A stretch of 64,000 bases of DNA from Pseudomonadota bacterium (lineage in GTDB: Bacteria; Myxococcota_A; UBA9160; SZUA-336). Position 1 is the first letter of the stretch. Each line of letters begins with the position of its first letter. Both the position numbers and the translations under genes were made by a program. The notes under the pieces were generated by a model. It was not told the DNA's origin and did not search any database. It saw only the letters and a list, made by a program, of their open reading frames with translations. Shown one piece after another: positions 12,700-50,547 of the stretch. The DNA lies in the NCBI GenBank assembly GCA_021295775.1, contig JAGWBS010000040.1, positions 906-64,905 of the forward strand. Direction: 5' to 3'.

Positions 12700-12701
12700 G
12701 C

Positions 12702-14924: not shown

Positions 14925-15113
14925 ATCGCCCGAGACGCTAGCCCAGGCCGACCGAGGCTTTCAATCGAAATCCGCGGCCCGCCGACGGCGGACGACCCGC
15001 TCTCGACCGCCTCCGCGCGGAGCGCGAAGCCGCACAGAAGCGTCAGCGGCAGCTTGGAGGACTGCCTGGATGCGAGCCTTGGAATCCCCCCGGGCGCCGC
15101 CGCCAGAAGGGCC

Positions 15114-16070: not shown

Positions 16071-16110
16071 CGACCTTCAACCCGCACGGGCAGCAATCTC
16101 GTGGAGCTAT

Positions 16111-16126
16111 AGCAAAATCGGTGCCA
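16111..16126 (-). promoter_or_regulatory. Sigma54 (-24/-12) promoter upstream of lpxC
   Basis: The minus strand reads TGGCAC-CGATT-TTGCT. This is an exact match to TGGCAC-N5-TTGCW with correct GG/GC spacing. It lies 41 nt upstream of the first possible lpxC start, in an AT-rich spacer. Confidence 0.6.
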
Positions 16127-16139
16127 TTCTAAAGAACGG

Positions 16140-16160
16140 CTCGAGAACTCGTCTCTCGAG
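16140..16160. repeat. Inverted repeat A (CTCGAGA-N7-TCTCGAG)
   Basis: Perfect 7-bp arms, centred about 30 bp upstream of the sigma54 element. Confidence 0.8.
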
Positions 16161-16237
16161 GATCGAGAATGAGAAAGCTGAGCTATCAAGGGGACTTCTT
16201 CCTATAAGCGCGAGAGAAGTTCAAGTGCTCCTGGATC

Positions 16238-16260
16238 CTCCGAAACCGGCTCTTTCGGAG
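16238..16260. repeat. Inverted repeat B (CTCCGAAA-N7-TTTCGGAG)
   Basis: Perfect 8-bp arms with the same 7-nt spacer length as repeat A. It lies about 130 bp upstream of the sigma54 element. Confidence 0.8.
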
Positions 16261-16281
16261 TCGAAGTGACATTTTCGTTAC

Positions 16282-16303
16282 GGCGTGACGATCGCGTCAC
16301 GCC
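16282..16303. repeat. Inverted repeat C (GGCGTGACG-ATCG-CGTCACGCC), possibly the TauE-gene terminator hairpin
   Basis: Perfect 9-bp arms with a 4-nt loop, 58 nt downstream of the TauE-family stop. No U-tract follows on either strand. Confidence 0.8.
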
Positions 16304-16360
16304 TGCTCGGCCGGTTCGAGGCGAATGGCGGCCGCCCGCCGCGAGGCGCTACGGGCCTCA

Positions 16361-17100
16361 TCACAACACAAACAGCAGGCGCAGCGCCATCGCCAGTACG
16401 GCCAGGGCGACGACCGGCCGCAGAAATCTCTCTCCGCGCCGCGCTCCGAATCGGGAGGCGACGTACCCCCCGACCGCCGAGCCCGCCGCCAGCGCCAGAC
16501 CCGGAATCCACCAGACCTGACCCGACCCGGCGAAAACCGCCAGCGCCAGACTCTGCTGGACGGTATTGATCGCCACTTTGGCGGCGTTGGCCCGCACCAG
16601 GTCGAGTCCCGCGACCGCCACCAGCGCCATCAGCAGCGGAATCCCCAGACCGGCCTGGACCACCCCGCCGTAGAAACCCATGGCCGCGAAGCTGAGTTGA
16701 ACCGACGCGCCAGTCCGGGTGCGCCGTTCGAACTGGGCGGAGGGTCTCCACAGCAGCGGCAGAAACGCCAGCATCAGCAGGGCGAAACCGAACTGGAACC
16801 ACTCGTCGGGCACGCGCGTGGCCAGCGACGCGCCCAGCAGGGTGCCGGCCAAGGTCGCGGGAAGGAAGCGCAGCGCGACCGTCAGTTCGCGCACCCCCTC
16901 GCGGCCGAATCCCGCCACGGCGGCGGCGCTCTGGGCCGCCACTCCGATGCGGTTGGTCCCATTGGCGATCCCCGCGGGTACGCCCACGAAGATCAGCAGC
17001 GGAACCGTCAGGAACGACCCGCCGCCCGCCAGCGTGTTGAGGGCGCCGGCCAGCGCGCCTCCGACCAGCAGGGTCAGCCAGTGCTCCGGCGCGGTCAGGT

Positions 17101-17104
<4 letters not shown>
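16361..17104 (-). CDS. TauE/SafE family sulfite/anion exporter, probably initiated at CTG
   Basis: The ORF track starts at GTG 16987 ([15 protein letters not shown]...). The frame stays open upstream and encodes [39 protein letters not shown], the conserved first TM/Gly motif of the family. No canonical start lies in that stretch. GGGGAGG-CTTCT-CTG is at 17104 and overlaps the ruvB TGA (CTGA). Confidence 0.7.
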
Positions 17105-18121
<1,017 letters not shown>

Positions 18122-18138
<17 letters not shown>

Positions 18139-18712
18139 GCAGCGCCTCCCGGATCACCGCCTGGAGCCCGGGGTCGGCGGGTAGTTCTTCGAGCGCCGCC
18201 CGCACCGAGCGCTCGGCGTGGGCGGCGGGATAGCCCAGGTTCAAGAGCGCGGAGACCGTCGCGCGCTCCACACCGTCCTGTCCCGGTTCGGCCTCTTCGC
18301 CCGCCTCCAGTTCGGAGGCGCGGTCGCGCAGATCCACCAGGATCCGCTCGGCGGTCTTCTTGCCCACGCCGGGAACCGCGACCAGCGCGCGCAGGTCGCC
18401 CTGCCGGATCGCGCCCAGCAGGGGTTCGGCCGGCAGTCCCGACAGGATCGCCAGGGCCAGCCGCGGCCCCACTCCGCTGATGCCCAGGAGCAGCCGGAAA
18501 ACCGCACGATCGGCTTCTCGCAGGAAACCGTAGAGTTGCAGCGCCTCCTCGCGCACATGCGTGTGGATGCGCAGGCCGACCGTCTTGCCCTCTTCGGGAA
18601 GCTGCAGGAACGTCGACAGCGGAACCCGAACCTCGTAGCCCACCCCGCCGACATCGAGAACGACCTCTTCGGGGCGTTTTTCGGTCAACACTCCTTCGAG
18701 TCGGGCGATCAC
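18122..18712 (-). CDS. ruvA: Holliday junction DNA-binding protein RuvA
   Basis: GTG 18712: [35 protein letters not shown]...[17 protein letters not shown]...[16 protein letters not shown]. The start overlaps the ruvC TGA (GTGA). The ORF-track N-terminal extension is spurious. Confidence 0.93.
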
Positions 18713-19203
18713 GCGCTGGCTCCCGCGCGATCGGCGCTTGTCCGGCTCTGGGCGCCGTGGCAGATCGCCACGGCGAGAGCGTCGGCGGCGTCCGAGGCCG
18801 GCGGACGCTCGAGACCCAGCAGGCGCTGGACCATGGACTGCACCTGCTGCTTGCTGGCGCGGCCGTAGCTGGTCACCGCACCCTTGACGCTCGTCGGGGC
18901 GTACTCGGCCGTCGCCAGTCCCGCGCCTCCGCAGACCGCCAGCGCCACTCCGCGGGCCTGTCCGAGCTTCAGCGCCGCGCGCGGATTGCGCGCGCTGAAG
19001 ACGGCTTCGAGCGCGGCCTCGTCCGGGCGGTGCGTACGCACGACCTCGGCCAGCCGGCTGTGGATGGAAGCCAGCCGCAGGCCCACGTCCTCTCCCCGCG
19101 TACGGATCACTCCGCAGTCGACGTAGCGCAGGCGAGAGCCCGAGAACTCCACGATGCCGTAGCCCGTGGCGATCGAACCCGGATCGATGCCCAGAATCCG
19201 CAC
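18709..19203 (-). CDS. ruvC: Crossover junction endodeoxyribonuclease RuvC
   Basis: Translation VRILGIDPGSIATGYGIVEFSGSRLRYVDCGVIRT...ADALAVAICH, a typical RuvC. Confidence 0.94.
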   Translation of the reverse strand: MRILGIDPGSIATGYGIVEFSGSRLRYVDCGVIRTRGEDVGLRLASIHSRLAEVVRTHRPDEAALEAVFSARNPRAALKLGQARGVALAVCGGAGLATAEYAPTSVKGAVTSYGRASKQQVQSMVQRLLGLERPPASDAADALAVAICHGAQSRTSADRAGASA

Positions 19204-36541: not shown

Positions 36542-37009
36542 ATGAGCGCAGACATCGACCCACGCACCCGGCTCGAGCTTCAAGACCTGGCGACGCAGTA
36601 CGGCCGCGGCGTGGACCACCGCGACTTCGAGCTGCTGGATTCGATCTTCACCCGGGACGCGCGGCTGGCGATGGTCTCGCGCGAGGCCGGCGCCGAGCCC
36701 AGCATGGACGTGAGGGGACGCGAGAACGTCGTCAACGCCATGCGCGGCATCCGCCGCTACCCGGTCACGACCCACTTCGTCGGCCGCCAGCACGTGGAGG
36801 TCGAAGGAGAGCGTGCCTCGGGCGAGACCTACTGCATCGCCTACCACCTGCACGACGTGGACGGACGGACCTTCAACTACGTCATGTCGATCCGCTACCA
36901 GGACCGCTACGCGGTCGAGGACGGCCGCTGGAAGTTCAGCGAGCGCGTGCTGGTGGTCGACTGGACGGACGACCAGCCGCTGAACCCGGTCGCGGATCCG
37001 CCTCAGTAG
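36542..37009 (+). CDS. SnoaL-like/NTF2-fold protein
   Basis: GGAGGA-N4-ATG. Translation ...LELQDLATQYGRGVDHRDFELLDSIFTRDARL...YQDRYAVEDGRWKFSERVL... Confidence 0.8.
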   Translation: MSADIDPRTRLELQDLATQYGRGVDHRDFELLDSIFTRDARLAMVSREAGAEPSMDVRGRENVVNAMRGIRRYPVTTHFVGRQHVEVEGERASGETYCIAYHLHDVDGRTFNYVMSIRYQDRYAVEDGRWKFSERVLVVDWTDDQPLNPVADPPQ

Positions 37010-37947
37010 CGCTGCTTCAGGTCCACCTGGCCCGTGAGCGGATCGTCGCGCTCCCAGCGGCCCAGGTTGTCTACGAAGGTGTCGAAAAGCCTGTCCAGCG
37101 CGCCGGGCGCGATCCAGGAGCAGTGCGGGCTTAGGCGCACGCGCGGATGGCGGTACAGCCAGTGGTCCTCCGGCAGCGGCTCGGGCTCGCACACGTCCAG
37201 CGAGGCCCGCGCGATGCGGCCGTCGTCGAGCGCCTCGCGCAGGGCGTCCTGGTCGATCAGGGACCCGCGCGCGATGTTGATCAGGTGCACACCCGGCTTG
37301 ACTTGCCCCAGCGCCTCGGCGTCGATCAGGTGCCGCGTCCGGGGGGTCGCGGCCGCGGCGATCACCAGGTGGTCCGACCGCGCCAGGAGCTCGGCCAGGG
37401 AAGCGACGATCTCGACCCCATCGACCGGGCTGGGCTGGGAGGTGCGGCGCAGCGCCAGTACGCGCATCCCGAAGGGCAGCGCCCGCTCGGCGATCGCCAC
37501 GCCGATGCCGCCGATCCCGACCAGCCCCAGGGTCTGACCGTACACTCCGCCCAGTTCGCCGGCGTTCCAACGCTCGGGCGGGCGGTCGATCCAGGTATCG
37601 GGCAGGGCCTTCTCGAGCGCCAGGATCACCGCCAGAACCCATTCCGAGATCGGGATCGCGCTGGCGCCGCGCGCGCAGGTCAGCACTCGGTCTCCCACCT
37701 GGTCCATGGGAAAGCGGTCCACGCCCGTGCCGACCGTGTGGATCCAGCGCACGCCAGCCGCCCGCACCAGCTCGCCCAGGTTCGGGCTGCCCCAGGCCGC
37801 TGTGAGCAGGATCTCTCCGCTCACCCCCTTCGGCGCCGGCCCCTCCTGAGGCACCTCGACCCACTCCACGTCAGGTCGGGCCTCGCTCACGCGGGCCAGC
37901 ACGGCGGGGGGAACGTGGGTCAGAACGCGCAGCGGCAAAGTCGGCAT
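37003..37947 (-). CDS. D-isomer-specific 2-hydroxyacid dehydrogenase (NAD-binding)
   Basis: ATG 37947, with GGGAGG 4 nt upstream. Translation ...TLGLVGIGGIGVAIAERALPFGMRVLA...LINIARGSLIDQDAL...ASLDVCEPEPLP... Its 3' end overlaps the SnoaL gene by 7 nt (convergent). Confidence 0.9.
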   Translation of the reverse strand: MPTLPLRVLTHVPPAVLARVSEARPDVEWVEVPQEGPAPKGVSGEILLTAAWGSPNLGELVRAAGVRWIHTVGTGVDRFPMDQVGDRVLTCARGASAIPISEWVLAVILALEKALPDTWIDRPPERWNAGELGGVYGQTLGLVGIGGIGVAIAERALPFGMRVLALRRTSQPSPVDGVEIVASLAELLARSDHLVIAAAATPRTRHLIDAEALGQVKPGVHLINIARGSLIDQDALREALDDGRIARASLDVCEPEPLPEDHWLYRHPRVRLSPHCSWIAPGALDRLFDTFVDNLGRWERDDPLTGQVDLKQRY

Positions 37948-38018
37948 GAGCCCTCCCGGAAGCCGGGCCATCATAACGCGGCTTGAACGCCGGGCCGGGC
38001 TTGGCCCATGCTCGCTGG

Positions 38019-39593: not shown

Positions 39594-40178
39594 ATGGAGC
39601 GCGAGATCATGCTGACCGGCATCGGCGGGCAGGGCGTCCAGCTCGCGGCGCAGGTTCTCGCGCGCGCCGCCGTGCGCGAGGATCGTCACGCGATCTACCT
39701 GGGCACCTACGGCGGCACCATGCGCGGCGGGAACACCGACTCCACGCTGGTGGTCGGCGACGCCCCGATCTCCGCTCCCCCGATCGTCTCGCGCACCTGG
39801 GCGGCGCTGGCGATGCACCACCAGTTCTGGGAACCCGTGCGGGACAAGCTGCGGCCGGGCGGCGTGGCGATGGTCAACTCTCCGGCGTTCGAGGGCGAAC
39901 TCGACCGCGAACGGCACCGGGTCTTCGAAGTGCCGGCGACGCCGATCGCGGCCGGGCTCGGCGGGGCGATGGCATCGTCGCTGGTCCTGGCCGGAGCGTT
40001 CGCCGCGACCACGGGACTGGTCGAGCTGCCGTCGCTGATCGAGGCCATGCGCGAGTCCCTGCCGCCCTACCGCCGGCAGCACCTGGAACTCAACCAGGCG
40101 GCGCTGGCAGCCGGTTTCGAAGCCGGCTCCCCCGGCGCGGCACCGGCCTGGCCGAAAAATGGCGGAGCGCCGGCGTGA
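39594..40178 (+). CDS. 2-oxoacid:ferredoxin oxidoreductase, gamma subunit
   Basis: Translation MEREIMLTGIGGQGVQLAAQVLARAAVREDRH... Confidence 0.88.
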   Translation: MEREIMLTGIGGQGVQLAAQVLARAAVREDRHAIYLGTYGGTMRGGNTDSTLVVGDAPISAPPIVSRTWAALAMHHQFWEPVRDKLRPGGVAMVNSPAFEGELDRERHRVFEVPATPIAAGLGGAMASSLVLAGAFAATTGLVELPSLIEAMRESLPPYRRQHLELNQAALAAGFEAGSPGAAPAWPKNGGAPA

Positions 40179-40423
40179 GAGCGATCGAAAGCCGCGGCAC
40201 CGTCACGATCGCGAAGCAACTCTGCAAGGGCTGCGAACTGTGCATCCCCGCCTGCCCGCCCCGGGTGCTGGAGATGTCGGAGGCCCACAACGAGCAGGGC
40301 TTCCCCTACCCCGAGCTGCGGCCAGGCTGCACCGGCTGCGGCGCCTGCCTGCTGGTCTGCCCGGACTTCTGCTTCGAGGTCTTCCTGTACCGGGAGCCGG
40401 TCGCTCACGAGGTCGCGCCGTGA
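40175..40423 (+). CDS. 2-oxoacid:ferredoxin oxidoreductase, delta subunit (2x[4Fe-4S] ferredoxin)
   Basis: The GTG start overlaps the gamma-subunit TGA (GTGA). The two Cys clusters are CKGCELCIPACP and CTGCGACLLVCP. Confidence 0.88.
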   Translation: MRAIESRGTVTIAKQLCKGCELCIPACPPRVLEMSEAHNEQGFPYPELRPGCTGCGACLLVCPDFCFEVFLYREPVAHEVAP

Positions 40424-41502
40424 GCCGCGAACTGATCGAGGGCTCCGCCGCCATCGCGGAAGCCGCCATCGCCGCGGGCTGCCGCTTTTTCGCCGGCTAC
40501 CCGATGACGCCCTTCACCGAGGTGCTGGAGCACTTCGCCAGGCGTCTGCCCGAGGTCGGCGGCGTCTGCATCAACGCGGAGAGCGAGCTGGAGGCGGTCG
40601 GGATGGCCTGGGGGGCCGTCTCCACCGGCGCGCGGGCGGCGACCGGTTCGACCGGCCAGGGCCTGTCGCTGATGCAGGAGTCGTTCTCGGAGATCACGCG
40701 CGCGGAGCTGCCGCTGGTGATCGTCAACATGGCGCGCGGCCAGGGCGACTACTACCAGTCGACGCGCGGCGGCGGGCACGGCGACTACCGTCACATCGTG
40801 CTGGCGCCGATCGACATCCACGAGGCGGTCGAGCTGACCCAGCTTGCGTTCCACCTCGCCGACGCCTGGCGCAACCCTGTGCTGATCTACGGCGACTATC
40901 TGCTGGCGCACACTTACGAGGCCGTCGACATCCGCGCGCTCGACTTCGGCGAGCTGCCGGCCAAGGACTGGGCCGTCGACGGCTCTTTGGGCGGAACCGG
41001 ACACTCCCGCAGCGTCAATCCGCTGGGGTTCCGCAAGGGCGAGACGGGCGTCGACCCGGACTCGATGTGGAAGCGGCTGCAGGCCAAGCACGACGCGATC
41101 GAACGCGAAGAGGCGCGCTGCGAGACGGAGTTCGTCGACGACGCCGAGACGGTCGTCGTGGCCTTCGGCTCGCTGGCCAAGTTCGCCCGCTACGCCGTCC
41201 GCGAGCTGCGCGGCGAGGGAGTGCGCGTGGGCTACGTGCGGCCCATCACGCTCTGGCCGTTCCCCTCGCAAGCCCTGGCGAGCGCCTGCGACGGAGCCGC
41301 CAACGTCGCCGTGCTGGAGCAGAACGCCGGCCAGATGATCGACGACGTGCGGCTGGCATTGCTGGGCCGCGCGCCGGTCGTCGCGATCGGGGAGATCTCG
41401 ACCGATCCGGCCGGATTCGGCGTCGGCCCCCTGCTCGACCCCGAGCGGGTGCGCGGGCGCATCGAAGCGGTGCTGGAAGCGCCGCCAGGAGGACCCCGGT
41501 GA
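40420..41502 (+). CDS. 2-oxoacid:ferredoxin oxidoreductase, alpha subunit
   Basis: GTG 40420 overlaps the delta-subunit TGA. Translation VSRELIEGSAAIAEAAIAAGCRFFAGYPMTPFTEVLEH... Confidence 0.9.
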   Translation: MSRELIEGSAAIAEAAIAAGCRFFAGYPMTPFTEVLEHFARRLPEVGGVCINAESELEAVGMAWGAVSTGARAATGSTGQGLSLMQESFSEITRAELPLVIVNMARGQGDYYQSTRGGGHGDYRHIVLAPIDIHEAVELTQLAFHLADAWRNPVLIYGDYLLAHTYEAVDIRALDFGELPAKDWAVDGSLGGTGHSRSVNPLGFRKGETGVDPDSMWKRLQAKHDAIEREEARCETEFVDDAETVVVAFGSLAKFARYAVRELRGEGVRVGYVRPITLWPFPSQALASACDGAANVAVLEQNAGQMIDDVRLALLGRAPVVAIGEISTDPAGFGVGPLLDPERVRGRIEAVLEAPPGGPR

Positions 41503-42347
41503 GCCGACTCCCGGTTCTGGACACCGACCGCCCGCCGCAGGCCTCGGCGGTCAAGATCGCGCGCGACAAGCCGGATCTGCTGCTGACCGAGCGCCACGAT
41601 CTCTGCCCGGGCTGCGGCGAGCCCCTGGCCATGCGCGTGCTGCTCGAGGCGATCGAAGAGCTGGACGCGAGCCGAATGGCGATCGGCGTGGTCGGCATCG
41701 GCTGCTACACCGCCTTCAGTCCGACCATGGACGTGGACAGCATCCAGGCGCTGCACGGTCGAGCGCCCTCGGTGGCGACCGGCGCCAAGCGCATGCGGCC
41801 GGAGTCGCTGGTGTTCACGCTCCAGGGCGATGGGGACATGGTCAACGAGGGCCTGCAGGAGGTCATCCACACCGCCGCGCGGGGCGAGTCCGTGACCTGC
41901 GTGCTGCTCAACAACGGCGTGTTCGGCGAGACCGGCGGCCACATGACCGCGACCACGGTGCTCGGGCAGCGCACCAAGAACTCGCTCGACGGCCGCGACG
42001 CCGCCTACCACGGCCACCCGATCCTGATCGGCGACCTGCTCGCCCAGCTCGGCGGAACCGCCTACGCGGCGCGCGGCGCGGTGGACGACGCCGCCGGCGT
42101 CGCGCGCGCCAAGCGCATGCTGCGGCGCGCCTTCCAGACCCAGCTCCGAGGCGAGGGCTTCTCCTTCGTCGAGATCCTGACCATGTGTCCCACCGGCTGG
42201 TTCATCCCCACGCCCGACGGCCCCGGCTACCTCGACGAGGTGATGGGCACGGTGCACGTGACCGGAGAGCTCAAGGCCGGCGGCAAGCTGACGACCACGG
42301 CCGAACTGATCGCGCGCCGCGGGGGCCGCGAAGCGCCGACCGCGTAG
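41499..42347 (+). CDS. 2-oxoacid:ferredoxin oxidoreductase, beta subunit (TPP-binding)
   Basis: GTG 41499 overlaps the alpha-subunit TGA. Translation ...HDLCPGCGEPLAMRVLLEAI...TLQGDGDMVNEGLQEVIHTAARGESVTCVLLNNGVFGETGGH... Confidence 0.9.
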   Translation: MSRLPVLDTDRPPQASAVKIARDKPDLLLTERHDLCPGCGEPLAMRVLLEAIEELDASRMAIGVVGIGCYTAFSPTMDVDSIQALHGRAPSVATGAKRMRPESLVFTLQGDGDMVNEGLQEVIHTAARGESVTCVLLNNGVFGETGGHMTATTVLGQRTKNSLDGRDAAYHGHPILIGDLLAQLGGTAYAARGAVDDAAGVARAKRMLRRAFQTQLRGEGFSFVEILTMCPTGWFIPTPDGPGYLDEVMGTVHVTGELKAGGKLTTTAELIARRGGREAPTA

Positions 42348-43234: not shown

Positions 43235-43690
43235 TCACTCGAACAGGTAGCGCGTCACGCTCTCGACCACGCATGCCGGCTTCTCGCTGCCCTCCACCTC
43301 CACGCTGATGCGCACCACGACCTGGACGCCGCCCGGTACGTCCTGCGCCTCCGCGACCTCGGCGCCGCAGCGCACCCGCGAACCGACCGGCACGGGGGCG
43401 GGGAAACGCACTTTGTTGGCCCCGTAGTTGATGCCCATCTGGGCGCCCGGAACCGTGATCAGCCCGGGCAGGAACATATTGGTCAGAGACAAGGTGAGGT
43501 AGCCGTGGGCGATCGTGCTGCCGAAGGGACCCGCCGCGGCGCGCTCGGCGTCGATGTGGATCCACTGGTGGTCCCCGGTCGCCTCGGCGAAGAGATCGAT
43601 GCGCGCCTGGTCGATCTCCAGCCATTCGCCGTACCCCAGGTGCTGGCCGACCGCGGCCTTGAGCTCGTCTGCGCTGTGGAACTCCGCCAT
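43235..43690 (-). CDS. MaoC-like (R)-specific enoyl-CoA hydratase/dehydratase
   Basis: ATG 43690: MAEFHSADELKAAVGQHLGYGEWLEIDQARIDLFAEATGDHQWIHIDAERAAAGPFGSTIAHGYLTLSL... The rest of ORF 43235..45445 is spurious. Confidence 0.9.
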   Translation of the reverse strand: MAEFHSADELKAAVGQHLGYGEWLEIDQARIDLFAEATGDHQWIHIDAERAAAGPFGSTIAHGYLTLSLTNMFLPGLITVPGAQMGINYGANKVRFPAPVPVGSRVRCGAEVAEAQDVPGGVQVVVRISVEVEGSEKPACVVESVTRYLFE

Positions 43691-43783
43691 GTTCTCCCTC
43701 GCCGTCTCGCGCGGTTCTCGACCGCGCCGACGGAGCGCCATTATCGCCGCGCGACCCCGGCGCTGGCCAGCGCGCCCGCTGCT

Positions 43784-44992
43784 ATGCTCCGGCACATGGG
43801 CTCCGCTCCCCGAGCGCTCGAGGGCGTGCGCGTTCTGGACCTCGGCACGCTGTACGCGGGACCCGCGCTGGCGGCGATGCTCGGCGATCTGGGCGCGGAC
43901 GTGATCAAGGTCGAGCCGCCGGGGGGAGATTCCCTGCGCCAGCTCGGGCAAAAGGTCGGGGGCCAGTCCCTGGTCTGGGCCATGACCGGGCGCAACAAGC
44001 GCGCCGTCACGCTGGACCTGGGGCAGGAACGCGGACAGGAGATCCTGCGGTCCCTGCTCGTGCGCAGCGACGTGGTGGTGGAGAACTTCCCGCTGCCGGC
44101 CCAGCGGCGCCTGCACTGCACCTACGAGGAGCTGCGCGCCGTCAATCCGCGGCTGATCGTGGTGAGCGTGAGCTGCTACGGACGTAGCGGCCCGTACAGC
44201 GAAAGGGTCGGCAACGGGACACTGGCGGAGGCCTTCGCCGGGCTCACGCACATGACGGGCGAAGCGGACGGGCCGCCGCTGCTGACCTCGCTGCCGATCG
44301 GCGACGTGCTGGCGTCGGTCCAGGGGGTGATCGGCGCGCTGGCCGCCTGCTATCACCGCGACGCCGGCGGCGGCGGCGGGCAGCACGTCGACGTGAGCAT
44401 GTACGAGCCCGTGCTTCAGTTTCTGACCAACCCCATCCTGCGCTACGGCCACAGCGGCGTGAGCGAGAGCCGCGCCGGCAGCCGCATTCCCGGTTCGGCG
44501 CCCCGCAATACCTACCGCACCCGCGACGGCCGCTGGGTCGTCATCTCCGCCGTCACCGACCGCATGGTCGCGCGTCTCCTGCAGGCGATGGGCCGGGACA
44601 GCCCGGCCAACCGGGAGCGCTTCGGGCGCCAGCCGGATCGTGTCCGGAACGAACTGGAAATGGACGCGGAAGTCGCCGACTGGGTGGCGCAGACCGATGG
44701 CGACGCGGTGGTGGAGACGCTGGCCGCCGCGGCCATCCCGGTCTCGGCCGTGAACGACGCGGCGGCGATCTTCGCCGATCCGCACATCGCCGCGCGCGGG
44801 AATCTGCTGGAAGTGACCGACCCCCGGGCCGGTCCCCTGCGCGTCCCCGCGCCCACGCCGCGCCTCAGCGAAACACCGGCGCGGATCCGCTGGACGGGTC
44901 CCGAAGTGGGCCAGCACAACCGCGAGGTCTACGCCGAACTCGGCCTGGACGACTCGGAACTGGAGGCGCTGCGGGAAGCCGGCGTGGTCTGA
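43784..44992 (+). CDS. CaiB/BaiF family (class III) CoA-transferase
   Basis: Translation ...LEGVRVLDLGTLYAGPALAAMLGDLGADVIKVEPPGGDSLR...VVENFP... The start is ATG 43784 or ATG 43796. The long upstream part of ORF 42185..44992 is spurious. Confidence 0.9.
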   Translation: MLRHMGSAPRALEGVRVLDLGTLYAGPALAAMLGDLGADVIKVEPPGGDSLRQLGQKVGGQSLVWAMTGRNKRAVTLDLGQERGQEILRSLLVRSDVVVENFPLPAQRRLHCTYEELRAVNPRLIVVSVSCYGRSGPYSERVGNGTLAEAFAGLTHMTGEADGPPLLTSLPIGDVLASVQGVIGALAACYHRDAGGGGGQHVDVSMYEPVLQFLTNPILRYGHSGVSESRAGSRIPGSAPRNTYRTRDGRWVVISAVTDRMVARLLQAMGRDSPANRERFGRQPDRVRNELEMDAEVADWVAQTDGDAVVETLAAAAIPVSAVNDAAAIFADPHIAARGNLLEVTDPRAGPLRVPAPTPRLSETPARIRWTGPEVGQHNREVYAELGLDDSELEALREAGVV

Positions 44993-45035
44993 GCCGGCGC
45001 TATACTCGCGGGGCGAATCCTTCCCGGAGGTCCGA

Positions 45036-45575
45036 GTGCAGCGCGTAACGATCCTGGATCCCACCGCCCCGCCCCCCGAGACCTCGGCCGATCCCGGCCC
45101 GCCCGCCGGCTCCCTTTCCGGCCGCCGAGTCGGGATCCGTTTCGACCAGACCTGGCGCTCTTTCATCACGGCCACGCGCGACTGGGCCCCGCGTCTCGAA
45201 GCGGCCGGCGCGCAGGTGCGCTGGTGGGACGCCGGCAGCCGCGTCGGCGAAGACGGCGAGCGCACTCGCCGCGAGCTGACCGAGTTCGTGCGGGAGGTCG
45301 ACGTCGCCATCGTCGGCCTGGGCAATTGAGGCTCCTGTACCGCCTGGACCGTCCACGACAGCGTGGCGGCGGTCGAGGCGGGCAAGGCGGCGGTCGCCGT
45401 CGTAACCCGGGAGTTCGAGGCACTGGCCCACAGCATGGCCGCCAACGCCGGCCGGCCCGGACTGCGCGTGCACGTGCTGCCCTACCCGCTCGAGTCGCTC
45501 GCCCCCGAGCGGGTCGCCGAGATCGCCGCCGAGCACTACCCCAAGCTGATGGGCACGCTGGGAGCGCAGGCGTGA
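45036..45575 (+). CDS. Probable selenoprotein (UGSC-motif family). The in-frame TGA at 45327-45329 is read as selenocysteine.
   Basis: GGAGG-N5-GTG at 45036. ORFs 45036..45329 and 45363..45575 are in the same frame and are separated by one TGA. Read-through gives ...VDVAIVGLGN-U-GSCTAWTVHDSVAAVEAGKAAVAVVTREFEAL..., where U-G-S-C is a UxxC redox motif. No start codon or SD lies between the TGA and 45363. A hairpin follows downstream. Confidence 0.65.
45347..45374 (+). promoter_or_regulatory. Candidate bacterial SECIS hairpin
   Basis: GACCG-T-CCACG-ACAG-CGTGG-CGG-CGGTC forms two 5-bp stems with an internal bulge and a 4-nt apical loop. The base of the stem lies 17 nt after the TGA. Confidence 0.4.
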
Positions 45576-45582
45576 GTCGGGC

Positions 45583-46653
45583 ATGACGATCGACCGCGAC
45601 TGCGGGCCCGAGGGCTGCGAGATCGACTGGCTGGCCAGTCCCAAAGTCGAAGTCGATCCCGACGCCGCCGAATTCACGCGCTTCGCCACCGACTCCGGCT
45701 GGGGCGACGGTCTGCCGCTCGTCCCGCCCACCGAGGAGCGAGTGCGCGGGCACGTGGCGGCCTCGGGCCGCTACCCCGACGAGTGCCTGGCCGACCTGCC
45801 GCCGCGCGGCGGGCGCTGCACGGTGGAGAAGGTCGCGATCAACGCCGTGATGGCGGGCACGCCACCGGAGTCGATGCCGCTGCTGTGCGCGGCGCTGGCG
45901 GCCATGGCGGAGCCGGACTTCAATCTCTTCGCCCTGAACACGACCACCTGCTGCGTGGTTCCCGGCGTTTTCGTCAACGGGCCGTCACGCGACGCTCTCG
46001 GCATTCCCTACGGCCCCGGCTGCTTTGGCGGGCAGGCCGGACCCGCCCCGGCCATCGGCCGCGCGATCCGGCTGGTGATGCGCAACGTGGGCGGGCAGGT
46101 GACGGGCCGGACGTCCAAGAGCGTGTTCGGCCAGCCGGCGCGCGTGACCGGCGTGGTGGTCGCCGAGTGGGAAGAGCGCTCGCCCTGGGCCCCGCTGGCA
46201 GAGCGCCGCGGCGTGAGCGGCGACGCGCTCACCGTCAAGGACGTCACCGGCACGATCGACGTGGCCGACGTGCTGGCGACCAACGGCGTCGATCTGCTGG
46301 AGATCGTGGGCAAGTCGCTGGCCTTCCCGGGCACCAACGCCTTCATCGCGCCGGTGGCGGACTCGGAAATCATGCTCGCGATCGCCCCTCCCTGGGCGGA
46401 CCTGATCGCGGCCTCCTATCCCACGCTCGAAGACGTCCAGCAGGCGCTCCACGAGGGGGCGAAGCTGCCGCTCTCCTGGTGGCCCGAGCCTCACCGCGAG
46501 CAGCTTCGGGAGCGCGTCGACTCCGACGGCTTCGTGCACCTGGTGGAAGGGCCGGAACGCATTCTGGTGATCTGCTGCGGCGGCCTGGGCAACCTGCACG
46601 CGCTGGCGCTGCACAGCTTTGGACCCACGCGCGCCGTCACTGTGCCGTTCTGA
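45583..46653 (+). CDS. Conserved-looking hypothetical protein (356 aa)
   Basis: ATG 45583 lies 7 nt after the UGSC-type gene. Translation MTIDRDCGPEGCEIDW...GWGDGLPLVPPTEERV...VEKVAINAVMAGT...LNTTTCCVVPGVFVNGP... The composition is protein-like and I recognise no family. Confidence 0.65.
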   Translation: MTIDRDCGPEGCEIDWLASPKVEVDPDAAEFTRFATDSGWGDGLPLVPPTEERVRGHVAASGRYPDECLADLPPRGGRCTVEKVAINAVMAGTPPESMPLLCAALAAMAEPDFNLFALNTTTCCVVPGVFVNGPSRDALGIPYGPGCFGGQAGPAPAIGRAIRLVMRNVGGQVTGRTSKSVFGQPARVTGVVVAEWEERSPWAPLAERRGVSGDALTVKDVTGTIDVADVLATNGVDLLEIVGKSLAFPGTNAFIAPVADSEIMLAIAPPWADLIAASYPTLEDVQQALHEGAKLPLSWWPEPHREQLRERVDSDGFVHLVEGPERILVICCGGLGNLHALALHSFGPTRAVTVPF

Positions 46654-46687
46654 CGCGCCGGCGAGCGGTCGCCTAAGATCCCGCGAC

Positions 46688-48784
46688 GTGGCGCAGAAAC
46701 GCAGCGATCTCGACCAGCTCTTCCACCCCCGAGGCGTGGCGATCATCGGACAGATCAACCGCGGGCTGTCCGAGGAGCGGACGCGGGCGCTGCACGATCC
46801 GCGCTACGGACCCGGCGGCTGGTCGCTGGTCAACCCCAAGGGCGGCGCGGTCGGTTCCCTGCCGATCTACACCTCGGTGGCCGAGGTCCCCGGGCCGCTG
46901 AGCCTGGCCGTGATCAGCGCCCCGCCGCGACTCTGCGCGGGGGTGATCGAAGAGTGCGGCCTGCGCGGCATCCGGCACGCCATCGTGTTCAGCTCGGGCT
47001 TCTCCGAGACCGGTGCCGAGGGCGCCGCCCACGAGCGCGCGCTGGCCGCGGCCGGCCGCCGCGCCGGGGTGCGCATCCTGGGACCGAACACCAACACCAA
47101 CCTGCTCGAGAGCCTGCCGGAGATCCCCGGGCTGCGCGGCGGCAAGATCGGCGTCGTCACTCAGTCGGGGCACAACGGCCGCCCGATCGTGCAGGGCGCG
47201 CACTTCAACGTCGGCTTCACGCGCCAGATCCCCTGCGGCAACGAGTGCGACCTGGACGTGTGCGACTTCATCGAGTACTTCGCGTACGACGACGAGACGG
47301 CCGTGATCGCCGGCTACATCGAGGGCTTCCGCAACCCCGACCGGCTGCGGCACGCGCTGGCCGCCACGGGCTCGCAGGGCAAGCCGGTGGTGCTGCTGAA
47401 AATGGGCAGCACCGCCGCCGGCTCGCGCATGGCCCGCTCCCACACCGGTCATCTGACCGGCGCCGACGCGGTCGTCGACGGCCTGTTCCGGCAGTACGGA
47501 GTGGTGCGGGTGCGCGACCTCGACGAGCTGCTGGAGACCGCCGCGCTCTTCGCGCGCCTGCCCGCCGGCACCGGTCCGCGCACCGCTCTTTACAGCATCT
47601 CGGGCGGATCGGGCACGCTGATGGCGGAGATGGCCGAGCGCTGCGGCGTGCCGCTGCCCCGTCTGAGCGACGCGACCCAGGAGGCGCTGTACGCCCACCT
47701 GCCCCGCTTCCTGAGCGTCGCCAACCCCGTCGACAACGGCGGTCAGTTCGTCACCGGCGCCCCGCCCGAGGTTCGGCGCGAGCTGATCGACCGGATCGCA
47801 GACGATCCGGGCGTGGACCTGGTGGTGGTGGGCGTGACGGGAGCGGTCCCGCCGATGAGCGACCTGCTTGGCGAGGACCTGGAGTTCCTGGTCGAGCGCG
47901 GGCTGCGCAAGCCCGTCGTCGTCACCTGGAATTCGCCCAAGGTCGACGAGCCCGGCTTCGACGCCATCGTGCGCTCGCAGCTTCCGCTGTTCAGAAGCTT
48001 CCGCGGCTGCTTCGAAGCGCTGCGGAACTACGCGGAGTACCAGCGGAGCCGCGAACGCTTCCGAACCCGCTCCGGGCGTGCGGCGCGTCTGCCGCGGGCC
48101 GCAGGCGATCTGCTGCAGGACGCCTCGGGGTCTCTGGACGACGCCTCCTCCCGGGCCCTGCTGGAAGCCTTCGGCCTGACGCTGGCCGAAGAACGGACGG
48201 TCGCTTCGGCCGCGGCCTCGGCGCGCGCGGCGCGCGAGCTCGGCCCGCCGGTCGCCCTCAAGATCGCCTCCCCCGACTTCCCGCACAAATCGGACGCGGG
48301 CCTCGTCCGGCTCGGGATCGGCAGCCCGAGCGAAGCCCGGCGCGTCTACCCGCAGCTCCTCGCCGCCGCCCGGCGGGCCGACCGGCGCGCCCGGATCCAA
48401 GGGGTCACGGTGCAGGAGATGGTCTCCGGGGGCGTCGAGACGATCGTCGGCGTGACGCGCGACCCGGTCCTCGGCCCCGCCGTGATGGTCGGGCTCGGCG
48501 GCGTCTTCGCCGAGATCCTGGCGGACGTGGCGGTCCGCCCCGTCCCGCTCGATGCGCGCGACGCCCGCGAGATGATCGAGTCCCTGCGCGGCTACCCGCT
48601 GCTGACCGGCGCGCGCGGCCGGCCCCGGGCCGACGTCGCGGCGCTGGCGCGCACCGTCGTGCGCGTGGCCCGGCTGGCGAGCGCTCTCGGCGACCGCCTG
48701 CTGGAACTCGACCTGAACCCGGTGCTGGTGCGGCCCGAGGGCGCGGTCGTGGTCGACCGCCTGGTCGTGCTCAGTAGCCGCTGA
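46688..48784 (+). CDS. ADP-forming acyl-CoA synthetase (acetate--CoA ligase family; CoA-binding + succinyl-CoA-synthetase-like + ATP-grasp)
   Basis: Translation ...LFHPRGVAIIGQINRG...ISAPPRLCAGVIEECGLRGIRHAIVFSSGFSETG...RILGPNTN... The C-terminal ATP-grasp part reads VALKIASPDFPHKSDAGLVRLG. The start is GTG 46688, or possibly TTG 46619. Confidence 0.88.
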   Translation: MAQKRSDLDQLFHPRGVAIIGQINRGLSEERTRALHDPRYGPGGWSLVNPKGGAVGSLPIYTSVAEVPGPLSLAVISAPPRLCAGVIEECGLRGIRHAIVFSSGFSETGAEGAAHERALAAAGRRAGVRILGPNTNTNLLESLPEIPGLRGGKIGVVTQSGHNGRPIVQGAHFNVGFTRQIPCGNECDLDVCDFIEYFAYDDETAVIAGYIEGFRNPDRLRHALAATGSQGKPVVLLKMGSTAAGSRMARSHTGHLTGADAVVDGLFRQYGVVRVRDLDELLETAALFARLPAGTGPRTALYSISGGSGTLMAEMAERCGVPLPRLSDATQEALYAHLPRFLSVANPVDNGGQFVTGAPPEVRRELIDRIADDPGVDLVVVGVTGAVPPMSDLLGEDLEFLVERGLRKPVVVTWNSPKVDEPGFDAIVRSQLPLFRSFRGCFEALRNYAEYQRSRERFRTRSGRAARLPRAAGDLLQDASGSLDDASSRALLEAFGLTLAEERTVASAAASARAARELGPPVALKIASPDFPHKSDAGLVRLGIGSPSEARRVYPQLLAAARRADRRARIQGVTVQEMVSGGVETIVGVTRDPVLGPAVMVGLGGVFAEILADVAVRPVPLDARDAREMIESLRGYPLLTGARGRPRADVAALARTVVRVARLASALGDRLLELDLNPVLVRPEGAVVVDRLVVLSSR

Positions 48785-49565
48785 ACTTCGGCTTGCGCTT
48801 TTCGAAGAAGGCGGCGACGGATTCGAGCTGGTCCGGGGTGCCCGACGAGAGCAGTTCCGCGCCCAGGCTGAAGTCCATCACCATGTTGAGCTGGTTCTGG
48901 AGCATCTTGTTGACCGCCAGCTTGGTCCAGCGCACGGCCGGCTGGGGGCGCTGGTTGAGGAGTTGCGCGTACTCTCGCGCCCGGTCCATCAGCTCGGCGT
49001 CGGGGACGCAGTGGTTGACCAGACCGGCCTCGGCCGCACGCGGCCCGTCCATCAACTGGCCGGACATCAGGTATTCCTTGGCGATGTGCGGCCCGACCAG
49101 CAGCGGCCAGATCACGCAGCCGCCGTCGCCCGCGACCAGGCCCATGTTGACGTGCGTGTCGCCGATGCGCGCGGACTCCGCCATGAAGATCACGTCGCAC
49201 ATCAGCGCCAGCGTGGCGCCCAGGCCGGTCGCCGGGCCGTTCACGGCCGAGATCAGCGGCGCCTCGCAGGCGGCCATGTCCCAGGTGAGATCGCGGTTTC
49301 CCCGGAACATGTCGATCGGACGTTCGTCGGGGTTGTTGAAGCCCTGCATGTCCCCGCCCGCGCAGAAGGCCGGCGGGGCGCCGGTCAGGATGATCGCGCC
49401 GACGTCGGGGTCGCGCCCGAGCTCGCGGAAGATCTGCTCCAGGCCGCGGTGCATCGGCCAGTTGACGGCGTTGCGCTTCTCGGGCCGGTTCATCCGCAGC
49501 GTGGCGATGCGGTCTTCGATCTCGACGACCAGGTGGTGATCGTCGGCGTAGCGCGAGTAGTCCAA
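48771..49565 (-). CDS. Enoyl-CoA hydratase/isomerase family protein
   Basis: TTG 49565, with GGGGAG 6 nt upstream. Translation ...IATLRMNRPEKRNAVN...ILTGAPPAFCAGGDM...AVNGPATGLGATLAL... Its 3' end overlaps the acyl-CoA synthetase gene by 14 nt. Confidence 0.9.
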   Translation of the reverse strand: MDYSRYADDHHLVVEIEDRIATLRMNRPEKRNAVNWPMHRGLEQIFRELGRDPDVGAIILTGAPPAFCAGGDMQGFNNPDERPIDMFRGNRDLTWDMAACEAPLISAVNGPATGLGATLALMCDVIFMAESARIGDTHVNMGLVAGDGGCVIWPLLVGPHIAKEYLMSGQLMDGPRAAEAGLVNHCVPDAELMDRAREYAQLLNQRPQPAVRWTKLAVNKMLQNQLNMVMDFSLGAELLSSGTPDQLESVAAFFEKRKPKFSGY

Positions 49566-49677
49566 GGCAAGCTCCCCGTTCGGCCGCAGCGCGCGATGCT
49601 ATCACGCGCCGGGCGTGCAACCCGGCGGGAAACGGGTCCGGGCCCGGGGCCGCGGGCCCGCGTCCGGGCGACGAAAT

Positions 49678-50547
49678 TCAAGCGCCCAGGAACTCCCGCA
49701 TCTCGGCGGCGACCTCGTCCGGGGCCTCCTCCGGCAGGAAGTGCCCGCAGGCGATGGCCCGGCCCCGAACGTCGTCGGCCCAGCGCTTCCAGGTGTCGAG
49801 CAGGGACGGCCGGGTGCCGCTGTGGTCGCCCCAGAGCGCCAGCACGGGGCAGTCGATTCGGCGCCCCGCCTCGCGGTCGCGCGCGTCGAGTTCGCGGTCG
49901 ACGGTCGCCCCGGCACGGTAGTCGTCGCAACTCGCGCGGATCGTCTCGCCCGCGAAGCACTCCAGATAGTCCCGCAGCGCAGCTTCGCCGAAGCAGTCCG
50001 GGTCTCCGGCCCAGCTCCGCAGGGTGTGCAGCAGGAAGTACTCGGCGTTGGCCGCGATCAGCGACTCCGGAAACGGCGGGGGCTGGGCCAGGAAGTACCA
50101 GTGATACGCGAACAGACCGCCCGCAAACCCCATCTGCTCCCAGGTGTCGAGGGTGGGGACGATGTCGAGCGCCACCAGCCGGGTCACGCGCTCGGGATGG
50201 TCCAGAGCCATGCGGTACGCGACCCGTCCGCCGCGGTCGTGGCCGGCCACCGCGAAGCTCTCGTGGCCCAGCTCGGCCATGACCCCGACCAGCTCCCGCG
50301 CTACCTCGCGCTTGGCGTAGGCCGCGCCGTTCTCTCCCCCCGGAGGCTTGGCGCTGCGGCCGTAGCCGAGCGAGTCCGGCACCACGACGCGGTGACGCTG
50401 CGCCAGGGCGGGAGCGACCCTGTGCCAGATCGCGTGAGTCTGCGGATAGCCGTGAATCAGCAGCAGCGGCGGTCCGCTGCCCCCGCTTCGCAGGTAGATC
50501 TCTCCCGCGGGCGTCGGGACGCGGCGCTCGTCGAAGCCTTCGAACAC
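49678..50547 (-). CDS. Alpha/beta hydrolase, haloacetate dehalogenase/epoxide hydrolase-like
   Basis: Translation VFEGFDERRVPTPAGEIYLRSGGSGPPLLLIHGYPQTHAIWHRVAP...AGHDRGGRVAYRMALDHPERV... Confidence 0.88.
   Translation of the reverse strand: MFEGFDERRVPTPAGEIYLRSGGSGPPLLLIHGYPQTHAIWHRVAPALAQRHRVVVPDSLGYGRSAKPPGGENGAAYAKREVARELVGVMAELGHESFAVAGHDRGGRVAYRMALDHPERVTRLVALDIVPTLDTWEQMGFAGGLFAYHWYFLAQPPPFPESLIAANAEYFLLHTLRSWAGDPDCFGEAALRDYLECFAGETIRASCDDYRAGATVDRELDARDREAGRRIDCPVLALWGDHSGTRPSLLDTWKRWADDVRGRAIACGHFLPEEAPDEVAAEMREFLGA

Follow-up and report, generated by a model that had tools for sequence, protein, structure and literature searches.

Selenocysteine (Sec) enzymes such as GrdB and PrdB cleave C-alpha-X bonds, and class III CoA-transferases serve 2-hydroxyacid routes, FldA being an example. 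The UGSC family of selenoproteins consists mostly of Sec-containing forms with few Cys forms; a thioredoxin-like fold was proposed for it in 2008, and its fusion to an unknown domain, designated 'Unknown_1', has been in print since the same year (PMC2398784). A 2026 review (PMC13188914) still listed no known function for the family. Here, we describe a UGSC gene and its neighbors in a 64,000-nucleotide stretch of bacterial DNA (the window).

Since the window has a G+C content of 72%, genuine reading frames were chosen via third-position GC. Frames, Pfam and NCBIfam located all genes listed in the original prediction for positions 43235-50547. Four genes form a unit on the plus strand: a class III (CaiB/BaiF) CoA-transferase of 401 aa that opens the unit (43787..44992; PF02515, 391 bits), a UGSC-family selenoprotein of 179 aa (45036..45575), a 356-aa protein with an N-terminal CGPEGC arm (45583..46653; hereafter the partner), and an ADP-forming (NDP-forming) acyl-CoA synthetase with fused alpha and beta parts (~46688..48784). 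The start of the synthetase is ambiguous (TTG at 46619 or GTG at 46688); it has CoA_binding (PF13380/PF02629), Succ_CoA_lig (PF13607) and ATP-grasp_5 (PF13549) domains, reaches no NCBIfam equivalog cut-off, and has no second copy elsewhere in the genome. The gaps within the unit are 43, 7 and ~34 nt, the partner starting 7 nt past the UGSC stop codon. A terminator scan found no terminator-like site in these three gaps, its sole match lying inside the CoA-transferase gene (1 observed versus 1.9 expected from shuffled sequences).

The remaining three genes are on the minus strand. A MaoC-type (R)-hydratase/dehydratase, a single-hotdog protein of 151 aa (43235..43690; PF01575, 90.7 bits), is divergent from the CoA-transferase, and a crotonase-family enoyl-CoA hydratase/isomerase (48771..49565; PF00378, 178 bits) is convergent with the synthetase, overlapping it by 14 nt. 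The last gene (49678..50547) encodes a fluoroacetate-dehalogenase-like alpha/beta hydrolase whose best solved relative is 3r3u (298 bits, E 7e-88), with residues 1-287 aligned to residues 9-300 of that protein; it carries GHDRGGR and HW motifs, which would correspond to the Asp/Arg of catalysis and the His-Trp that binds halide in fluoroacetate dehalogenase. The cluster had been described as having no obvious dehydrogenase or reductase. No dehydrogenase is indeed present within 43235-50547, but the flanks carry a 2-oxoacid:ferredoxin oxidoreductase (40159-42347) and, outside that range on the minus strand, a D-2-hydroxyacid dehydrogenase (37003..37974).

The proposal that UGSC and the 356-aa protein belong together was borne out by comparison of loci. 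In ~79 of 80 close loci, the partner directly follows UGSC, and in ~74 of 83 distant loci (31-59% identity) the two are neighbors in one order or the other. The genome itself carries five pairs, each of its five partner genes adjoining one of its five UGSC genes. The two proteins also occur as natural fusions, both in Cys form (P0170, P0148 and P0253) and in Sec form (at least 10, read from DNA), and the structure of a natural UGSC-partner fusion was modeled with high scores (pLDDT 93.6, pTM 0.92). The pair is the sole widely conserved core of the cluster, and we predict it to be a widespread two-subunit selenoenzyme whose subunits are sometimes fused.

The partner encoded in the window belongs to a clade of 91 rows (support 98), here called subfamily W, whose largest clade is that of Acidimicrobiia. 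Each of the 84 covered W rows has C7 and C12 of the CGPxGC arm, as does none of 61 rows outside W, and we infer that subfamily W is marked by this flexible N-terminal arm together with Cys147. An ortholog of the window CoA-transferase (39-61% identity) lies within 2.5 kb of the pair in 22 of 91 W loci (21 besides the window's own), whereas in other subfamilies a CoA-transferase is near in 3 of 61 loci, all of them paralogs at 31-33%; these counts overstate independence, because kin loci share synteny. MaoC-type genes recur as well, with 33 within 4 kb of W pairs versus 1 at 6-10 kb. The window MaoC, which is the genome's only copy of this type, is syntenic in two other loci (L013 and L172; 69% identity) and is not orthologous to the MaoC of Acidimicrobiia. 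In the W clade of Acidimicrobiia, no CoA-transferase adjoins the pair; the best candidates there (40-49% identity) are far from it, ~190 kb in the one readable case (L016).

The other CoA genes fared differently, and the idea that the whole cluster constitutes one CoA-ester pathway held in part: the pair is conserved and the CoA-transferase and MaoC recur in subfamily W, but the remaining genes do not. An ADP-forming synthetase was found near W pairs in 0 of 91 loci besides the window's own, a crotonase ortholog (60% identity) in a single locus (L011), and an ortholog-level match to the dehalogenase in none of the 80 close loci; in the distant loci, there were just two dehalogenase matches, of 28% identity and ~5.6 kb off. 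These three genes are not kept even at 75-80% partner identity. Close relatives of the window pair include one next to a MaoC, a CoA-transferase and a double acyl-CoA dehydrogenase (L172), one next to an AMP-ligase, two acyl-CoA dehydrogenases and a CoA-transferase (L173), and the closest, at 80% identity, with no CoA gene nearby (L174). Pairs of other subfamilies adjoin aminotransferases, Rieske oxygenases, short-chain dehydrogenases and transporters.

Such a patchy neighborhood could arise if UGSC and its partner were self-contained, e.g., a general thiol/selenol redox or detoxification enzyme unrelated to CoA esters, and were placed next to CoA genes by crowding. We regard this as a real possibility, although not a probable one. 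Chance adjacency is not rare, because 64 class III CoA-transferase and 42 crotonase paralogs are present in the 3.38-Mb genome; a gene pair picked at random is expected to have a CoA-transferase within 2.5 kb in roughly 1 of 7-10 cases, and the overall density of CoA-transferases near W pairs is 1.5 times that at 6-10 kb. The lack of the synthetase, the crotonase (L011 excepted) and the dehalogenase at other loci, the lack of CoA genes near the pair of the closest relative, and the unrelated neighbors of the other subfamilies also fit crowding. Against it, the adjacent CoA-transferases are orthologs rather than random paralogs (27-33%), their adjacency persists through three gene arrangements and includes basal W branches, and the MaoC is single-copy in the genome and yet adjacent, with MaoC-type genes strongly concentrated near the pair.

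The adjacency of the CoA-transferase is a first hint, drawn from gene order, that the pair may act on CoA-activated acids. The window CoA-transferase matches PF02515 over its full length (profile positions 1-366 of 366) and reaches no NCBIfam equivalog cut-off (224 bits versus 700 for mesaconate and 222.6 versus 750 for glutarate). Among solved structures, 4ed9, BbsF, Frc and SUGCT are closest to it, and its best-scoring families are all dicarboxylate users (mesaconate, glutarate, benzylsuccinate and oxalate). Because W pairs are found repeatedly beside one orthologous CoA-transferase lineage and MaoC-type hydratases, the most likely substrate is a carboxylic acid in the form of a CoA thioester, and this acid may be a dicarboxylate. 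Our preferred explanation, whose chances we consider to be about even, is that the W pair is a selenoenzyme handling such an acid, with the synthetase, crotonase and dehalogenase being local additions. The large partner would be the substrate-binding or catalytic subunit, and UGSC a flavodoxin-like subunit in which the selenolate of U98, together with Cys101, would carry out two-electron chemistry, ending as a selenosulfide that needs re-reduction. That the pair may supply the redox step, for which the original prediction saw room, is plausible from the U-x-x-C motif.

A more specific version of this preferred explanation, in which subfamily W is a selenium-dependent reductase of CoA-activated acids, is speculative and, taken as a whole, improbable. 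The adjoining class III CoA-transferase would deliver a 2-substituted or 2-enoyl acyl-CoA, which may be a C4/C5 dicarboxyl-CoA or a 2-hydroxyacyl-CoA that stems from the D-2-hydroxyacid dehydrogenase; C-alpha or C-beta of this acyl-CoA would be the site of attack for the selenolate; Cys101 would resolve the Se-C adduct to give a saturated acyl-CoA and a selenosulfide; and recycling of the latter would fall to the partner, through its N-terminal CGPxGC arm.

A further alternative is that the W enzyme works like glycine or proline reductase and takes the C-alpha substituent off a 2-substituted acyl-CoA by reduction; an example of such a substrate would be a 2-hydroxyacyl-CoA formed by the joint action of the class III CoA-transferase and the D-2-hydroxyacid dehydrogenase. 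The window dehydrogenase, 7 kb from the pair, is 49% identical over its full length to a dehydrogenase cluster (cluster 12) that accompanies the pair in 43 of 75 W loci of non-myxobacterial origin, and it is the best of five genome paralogs in this comparison (256 versus 151 bits); in Acidimicrobiia, its ortholog comes after the pair. The 2-oxoacid:ferredoxin oxidoreductase, which is syntenic in L172, lies between it and the pair, and FldA and the Sec enzymes GrdB and PrdB offer precedents for the two kinds of chemistry. Nevertheless, this dehydrogenase is not adjacent to the pair in Myxococcota-like loci, the reading is purely inferential, and no GRDB-family gene was matched in the genome, a search that proves little since control genomes were equally without a match. 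We consider this alternative unlikely.

The partner was originally described as a conserved protein of unknown function, and comparisons of sequence, profile and structure agree in that no characterized family fits it. It has at least 3085 homologs (3974 clusters at 50% identity) and no match in Pfam, NCBIfam or PDB sequences. Its family is recognized by a ~350-aa domain, beside or fused with UGSC, with the motifs WxDGLPxxPPT, VNGP, IGRA and GExEExSPW, and its family-wide invariant residues are D42, T121, T122, R160, E195, W202 and H339. No cysteine is conserved across the whole family, and hence there is no family-wide Cys triad or set of Fe-S ligands; no pyruvoyl-forming site was identified either. 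The partner is probably the 'Unknown_1' of Zhang and Gladyshev (2008). On one contig, it is fused in frame to an AMP-forming acetyl-CoA-synthetase-like enzyme, a second case of an acid-activating enzyme after the partner. Its structure model is of high confidence (pLDDT 92, pTM 0.91), and no solved fold matched it in Foldseek searches with a TM-score above 0.29. The best matches were to cyclic amide hydrolases and to class I fumarate hydratases, the latter with E 1.5e-4 and a probability of 0.93. Together with the resemblance of the adjoining CoA-transferase to dicarboxylate-specific enzymes, they would agree with a very distant kinship between the partner and class I fumarate hydratase or Toblerone-fold hydrolases. 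The partner would then be a hydro-lyase or hydrolase of dicarboxylates, and UGSC would act only as its redox partner, in protection or regulation. We find this very unlikely: TM-scores of these matches are 0.17-0.29 with rmsd above 12 A, hhalign gives the partner profile a probability of 0.2% against class I fumarate hydratases, the cysteine triad is missing from the family, and the genome carries its own class I fumarate hydratase. An assignment of the partner to class I fumarate hydratase was rejected on the first three of these grounds.

The UGSC protein contains Sec98 and Cys101 in the sequence GLGN-U-GSC-TAW, where the sole in-frame TGA of the gene (45327..45329) is translated as Sec; the five UGSC genes of the genome have exactly one TGA each. 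The reading of this TGA as an ordinary stop between two unrelated small ORFs (45036-45329 and 45363-45575) or within a pseudogene is refuted for practical purposes: it is in line with the split of the gene by gene callers in every public record and with the lack of covariation support beyond shuffled controls for the hairpin after the UGA, but a single Pfam UGSC match (PF24696, 112.5 bits against a cut-off of 25) covers both sides of the TGA, running from residue 5 to 176 on profile positions 1-171 of 172, TGA is retained in 78 of 78 orthologous loci and replaced by Cys codons in other lineages, and the genome has the full Sec machinery (selA, selB, selD and tRNA-Sec). On this genomic evidence, we conclude that Sec in UGSC is real. 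A stem-loop right after the UGA (45336..45384) is a candidate SECIS element by predicted fold (-45.9 kcal/mol over the 83 nt folded, 45318-45400; z = -3.16 versus shuffles), and this site has no Rfam match. The UGSC domain of the fusion model resembles alpha/beta domains of the flavodoxin-like, SIS and receiver types (TM to target 0.42-0.53). Thioredoxins are absent from the matches listed, and the model does not bear out the thioredoxin fold proposed in 2008. GRDB (PF07355) was not detected in UGSC, which matches PF24696 only in Pfam.

No described pathway fits this combination of genes, in agreement with the original prediction, which recognized none in it. Itaconate/mesaconate-type CoA routes share with it the divergent MaoC and the class III CoA-transferase with top scores to dicarboxylate enzymes, and the FldA/FldH 2-hydroxyacid route shares a nearby D-2-hydroxyacid dehydrogenase; unlike in these routes, no equivalog cut-off is reached, no lyase or radical dehydratase is present, and the transferase and synthetase genes have a selenoprotein pair between them. 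The partner shows weak local resemblance to class I fumarate hydratase and to cyclic amide hydrolases of the Toblerone fold over ~340 columns (Foldseek E ~1e-4), but differs from them in overall fold, profile and Fe-S ligands.

The UGSC protein differs from the equivalog of its published family (PF24696/NF041046) in that it falls below the NCBIfam cut-off (74.3 bits versus 125), residues 79-175, the C-terminal half, alone being aligned, and in its modeled flavodoxin-like rather than thioredoxin-like fold. It agrees with this family in the full-length domain, the U-G-S-C motif and the predominance of Sec forms, and the published 'Unknown_1' fusion fits the fusions found here. Glycine/sarcosine/betaine and D-proline reductases differ from the pair more widely: the genome has no GRDB match (nor do the controls), the partner lacks detectable similarity to known families, and carriers of the pair are not Stickland fermenters. 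As a functional analogy only, however, GrdA, GrdB/GrdE and PrdB/PrdA resemble the pair in joining a Sec/Cys selenoprotein (UxxC in PrdB) to a larger substrate-binding subunit, and the expected end state in both would be a selenosulfide requiring an external reductant. If the pair did act as a reductase of CoA-activated acids, it would represent a Stickland-type selenium mechanism transplanted to the acyl-CoA metabolism of non-fermenting bacteria.

At the locus studied here, a small selenocysteine (Sec)-containing subunit, encoded by a UGSC gene, and a large unnamed subunit of 356 aa, which we call the partner, are co-inherited and in some organisms fused. Both genes lie in a cluster at positions 43235-50547. 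Because the window has a G+C content of 72%, open frames are plentiful; genes were therefore picked by third-position GC and then confirmed with Pfam and NCBIfam family searches, and every gene named in the original prediction was found in this way. The cluster opens with a MaoC gene on the minus strand (43235-43690), followed on the plus strand by a class III CoA-transferase (43787-44992), the UGSC gene (45036-45575), the partner (45583-46653), which starts 7 nt past the UGSC stop, and an ADP-forming acyl-CoA synthetase (about 46688-48784). Two minus-strand genes close it: a crotonase (48771-49565), which converges on the synthetase with a 14-nt overlap, and an alpha/beta hydrolase (49678-50547), for which fluoroacetate dehalogenase is the nearest relative of solved structure (E 7e-88). 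Gaps of 43, 7 and about 34 nt lie between the four plus-strand genes, and a terminator scan found no terminator-like sites in them; its sole match falls within the CoA-transferase gene, and one match is fewer than expected from shuffles.

The window's UGSC gene is a selenoprotein gene. Its one in-frame TGA (45327-45329) is read as GLGN-U-GSC, with Sec at position 98 and a cysteine at position 101, and a single match to the Pfam UGSC family (PF24696) covers both flanks of the TGA. The protein belongs to the Pfam family; against the NCBIfam equivalog model it scores 74 bits, below the cut-off of 125. The genome assembly (3.38 Mb, 99 contigs, 89% complete) has selA, selB and selD genes that exceed curated cut-offs, one tRNA-Sec, and five UGSC genes with exactly one TGA apiece. 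Genome assemblies supplied 80 related loci; all 78 in which the motif region is present retain the TGA, and their motif is invariably GLGNUGSCT[SA]W. A stable hairpin is predicted 3' of the UGA (z = -3.16 against shuffles) and is a candidate SECIS; Rfam SECIS models gave no match at this site, RNAalifold found no consensus structure, and covariation in the window's hairpin was not above shuffled controls. UGSC proteins are among the most abundant selenoproteins of aquatic and soil metagenomes. They ranked fifth among selenoprotein families in the GOS ocean survey (PMC2398784) and are still without a known function about twenty years after their discovery (PMC13188914).

With the partner as bait, we determined how often UGSC accompanies it in related loci, all of them metagenomic contigs or parts of metagenome-assembled genomes. 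UGSC lies directly upstream of the partner in essentially every close locus with enough room. Among 83 distant loci (31-59% identity; metagenome contigs and three Pfam-annotated contigs), 62 have UGSC adjoining the partner on its upstream side and about 12 have it directly downstream, mostly in the Sec form, with the Cys form in nine. True in-frame UGSC-partner fusions occur at a minimum of 10 loci, where the Sec codon is the sole TGA, and Cys-form fusions of 530-560 aa are found among representative clusters. The pair itself is not new, since a UGSC/Unknown_1 fusion has been in print since 2008 (Zhang and Gladyshev, PMC2398784), and the partner is a candidate for the Unknown_1 domain. The genome has five partner paralogs, each adjoining one of the five UGSC genes. 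The other four pairs (contig C58, 19811-20946; C14, 17670-19237; C38, 376-1835; C12, 2647-4142) have UGSC upstream in one case and downstream in three, each with one TGA. In all, the partner family comprises 3974 clusters at 50% identity, every member being annotated as hypothetical.

Several arrangements of the partner were observed in addition. In two Acidimicrobiia assemblies, the locus of the pair (L046 and L076) also contains a distant paralog of the partner (36-37% identity), some 3-4 kb upstream of the pair itself. One 695-aa homolog (P0256) joins a partner domain to a C-terminal pyridine-nucleotide-disulfide oxidoreductase. Three proteins of about 710-740 aa (P0169, P0205 and P0229) align to the partner over two or three discrete segments each, and possibly comprise two partner domains.

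The 356-aa protein had been proposed to stand outside characterised families, and this proved correct: neither Pfam nor NCBIfam gave a match, and sequence and profile searches of PDB with the partner and with UGSC gave no meaningful match. The partner was modeled from a 70-sequence alignment (pLDDT 92, pTM 0.91), and in PDB Foldseek matched it to nothing but class I fumarate hydratases and Toblerone-fold cyclic amide hydrolases, with TM-scores of 0.17-0.29. A remote relationship to class I fumarate hydratase was rejected, the hhalign probability being 0.2% against a 13-sequence profile from this genome and its relatives' genomes. Given these weak TM values and the hhalign result, we treat the partner fold as one without a known relative; judged from the model, it appears to have no structural relative among solved proteins. 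Residues D42, P45, N87, T121, T122, R160, E195 and W202 are invariant across the family and H339 is nearly so; the alignment contains no cysteine conserved across the whole family. A model of a natural Sec fusion (L138; pLDDT 93.6, pTM 0.92) suggests a defined docking of the UGSC and partner domains. Its Foldseek matches are generic alpha/beta proteins aligned to the UGSC part, which is predicted to be a flavodoxin-like alpha/beta domain rather than a thioredoxin, with Sec between a beta-strand and the next helix.

FastTree was the only method used for the tree, which covers 152 partner sequences and places the window's partner in a well-supported clade of 91 rows, here called subfamily W. This clade is marked by an N-terminal CGPxGC arm that all 84 covered W rows have and all 61 other rows lack; the arm has low model confidence and is probably flexible. 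Cys147 is found in 89 of the 91 W rows, and Cys93, typical outside W, is replaced by Ala. When fusions were aligned, MAFFT laid the partner's W-specific DCGPEGC arm (residues 1-12, window positions 45583-45620, pLDDT 49-71) over the D-U/C-G-SC motif of UGSC, a resemblance that may be coincidental.

The cluster had initially been viewed as one unit. Neighborhood analysis upheld the recurrent UGSC-partner pairing but not the inclusion of the synthetase, crotonase and dehalogenase: the pair is conserved, and little else. An ADP-forming synthetase was found beside no other pair in the 91 W loci, the crotonase has one ortholog-level neighbor (in L011) and the dehalogenase has none, and these three genes appear to be local additions in this genome. 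No third conserved partner emerged: in L172, L173 and L174, loci of the closest relatives, the unknown genes that flank the pair are mutually unrelated. On one 2-kb metagenome contig (L187, 322-2076), a linker of about 40 aa joins the partner in frame to a canonical AMP-forming acetyl-CoA-synthetase N-terminus. The contig end looks chimeric, and the join may reflect either a genuine fusion or loss of a stop codon; here, as in the window, an acid-activating enzyme follows the partner, although the enzymes differ.

Subfamily W keeps other company. Of the 91 W loci, 22 have a class III CoA-transferase with 39-61% identity to the window's less than 2.5 kb from the pair. Such locus counts are not independent, because kin share synteny. 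The transferase occupies three placements: on the strand of the pair it lies either upstream or downstream, and in the third it is upstream and divergent; the loci include basal branches, e.g., L094, L097 and L088. Outside W, only 3 of 61 rows have a nearby CoA-transferase, all of them 31-33% paralogs. MaoC-type genes around W pairs number 33 within 4 kb versus one at 6-10 kb. Among the closest relatives, the neighbors are MaoC, a CoA-transferase and a double acyl-CoA dehydrogenase in L172 and a CoA-transferase, an AMP-ligase and two acyl-CoA dehydrogenases in L173; L174 (80% identity) has none of these acyl-CoA genes nearby. In L174, a BREX-type defence cluster (11853-19098; BrxE, BrxB, BrxC/PglY and a methyltransferase) lies about 1.8 kb downstream of the pair, past a PAS-domain gene and a small uncharacterized one. 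Pairs of other subfamilies have quite different neighbors. Downstream of one of them (L089) come a hotdog protein and three CoA-transferases, and the C12 pair of this genome is directly followed by two class III CoA-transferase paralogs.

The main rival explanation, which we regard as less likely than not, is that the CoA genes beside the pair are a chance neighborhood. The genome's acyl-CoA toolkit is unusually large, with 64 class III CoA-transferase and 42 crotonase paralogs in 3.38 Mb, so that such genes often adjoin others by chance; a random gene pair would have a CoA-transferase within 2.5 kb roughly once per seven to ten trials, and near W pairs CoA-transferases are on the whole only 1.5 times as dense as at 6-10 kb. 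Set against this are the single transferase lineage and the MaoC genes that recur beside W pairs.

In the large Acidimicrobiia clade of W, no CoA-transferase adjoins the pair; the best candidates there (40-49% identity) are elsewhere in the genome, in L016 about 190 kb away. Gene order in this clade is fixed: TetR, MaoC, short-chain dehydrogenase, xylose-isomerase-like TIM barrel, UGSC, partner, D-2-hydroxyacid dehydrogenase, GFO/IDH/MocA oxidoreductase, nitroreductase and an unknown gene. Orthology of the window's MaoC to the Acidimicrobiia MaoC was rejected (36% identity over 36 residues only). The original prediction saw no obvious dehydrogenase or reductase; this is true within 43235-50547, where no dehydrogenase was found, but the flank just upstream carries a D-2-hydroxyacid dehydrogenase (37003-37974) and a four-subunit 2-oxoacid:ferredoxin oxidoreductase (40159-42347). 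The former is the ortholog of the Acidimicrobiia gene (49% identity, the best of five genome paralogs) and the latter is syntenic in L172, which together point to a 2-hydroxy/2-oxo acid theme. The dehydrogenase gene overlaps an AMP-forming ligase gene by 4 nt. The oxidoreductase also lies less than 9 kb from the genome's only ADP-forming acyl-CoA synthetase (46688-48784), and these two enzymes are a textbook combination for gaining ATP from 2-oxoacids.

We consider it very probable that the pair acts as an enzyme. The large partner subunit would bind the substrate, and Sec98 and Cys101 would carry out two-electron chemistry ending in a selenosulfide; the CGPxGC arm of W partners may pass on reducing equivalents. 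A link of the W pair to CoA esters is a tentative proposal, with a chance of being right that we put at even or slightly less. The substrate would then be a carboxylic acid delivered as its CoA thioester by the adjacent transferase; the window's CoA-transferase has its top scores against dicarboxylate-specific enzymes. As W keeps company with this CoA-transferase lineage and MaoC, there is a concrete substrate class to test.

What is new here is a subfamily delimited by its own cysteine signature, its recurrent company of one CoA-transferase lineage, MaoC hydratases and D-2-hydroxyacid dehydrogenase, a flavodoxin-like model proposed for UGSC, and the negative result on the synthetase, crotonase and dehalogenase, which are unsuited for inferring the function of the pair. 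The boldest reading, which we think improbable, is that the pair would cleave a 2-substituted acyl-CoA reductively at C-alpha in the manner of glycine reductase. UGSC does not match the model of the glycine/proline reductase selenoprotein B family (GRDB, PF07355), and a genome-wide GRDB search gave no match in this genome, but none in the control genomes either, and so carries little weight. Any likeness of the pair to glycine and proline reductases would be functional only.
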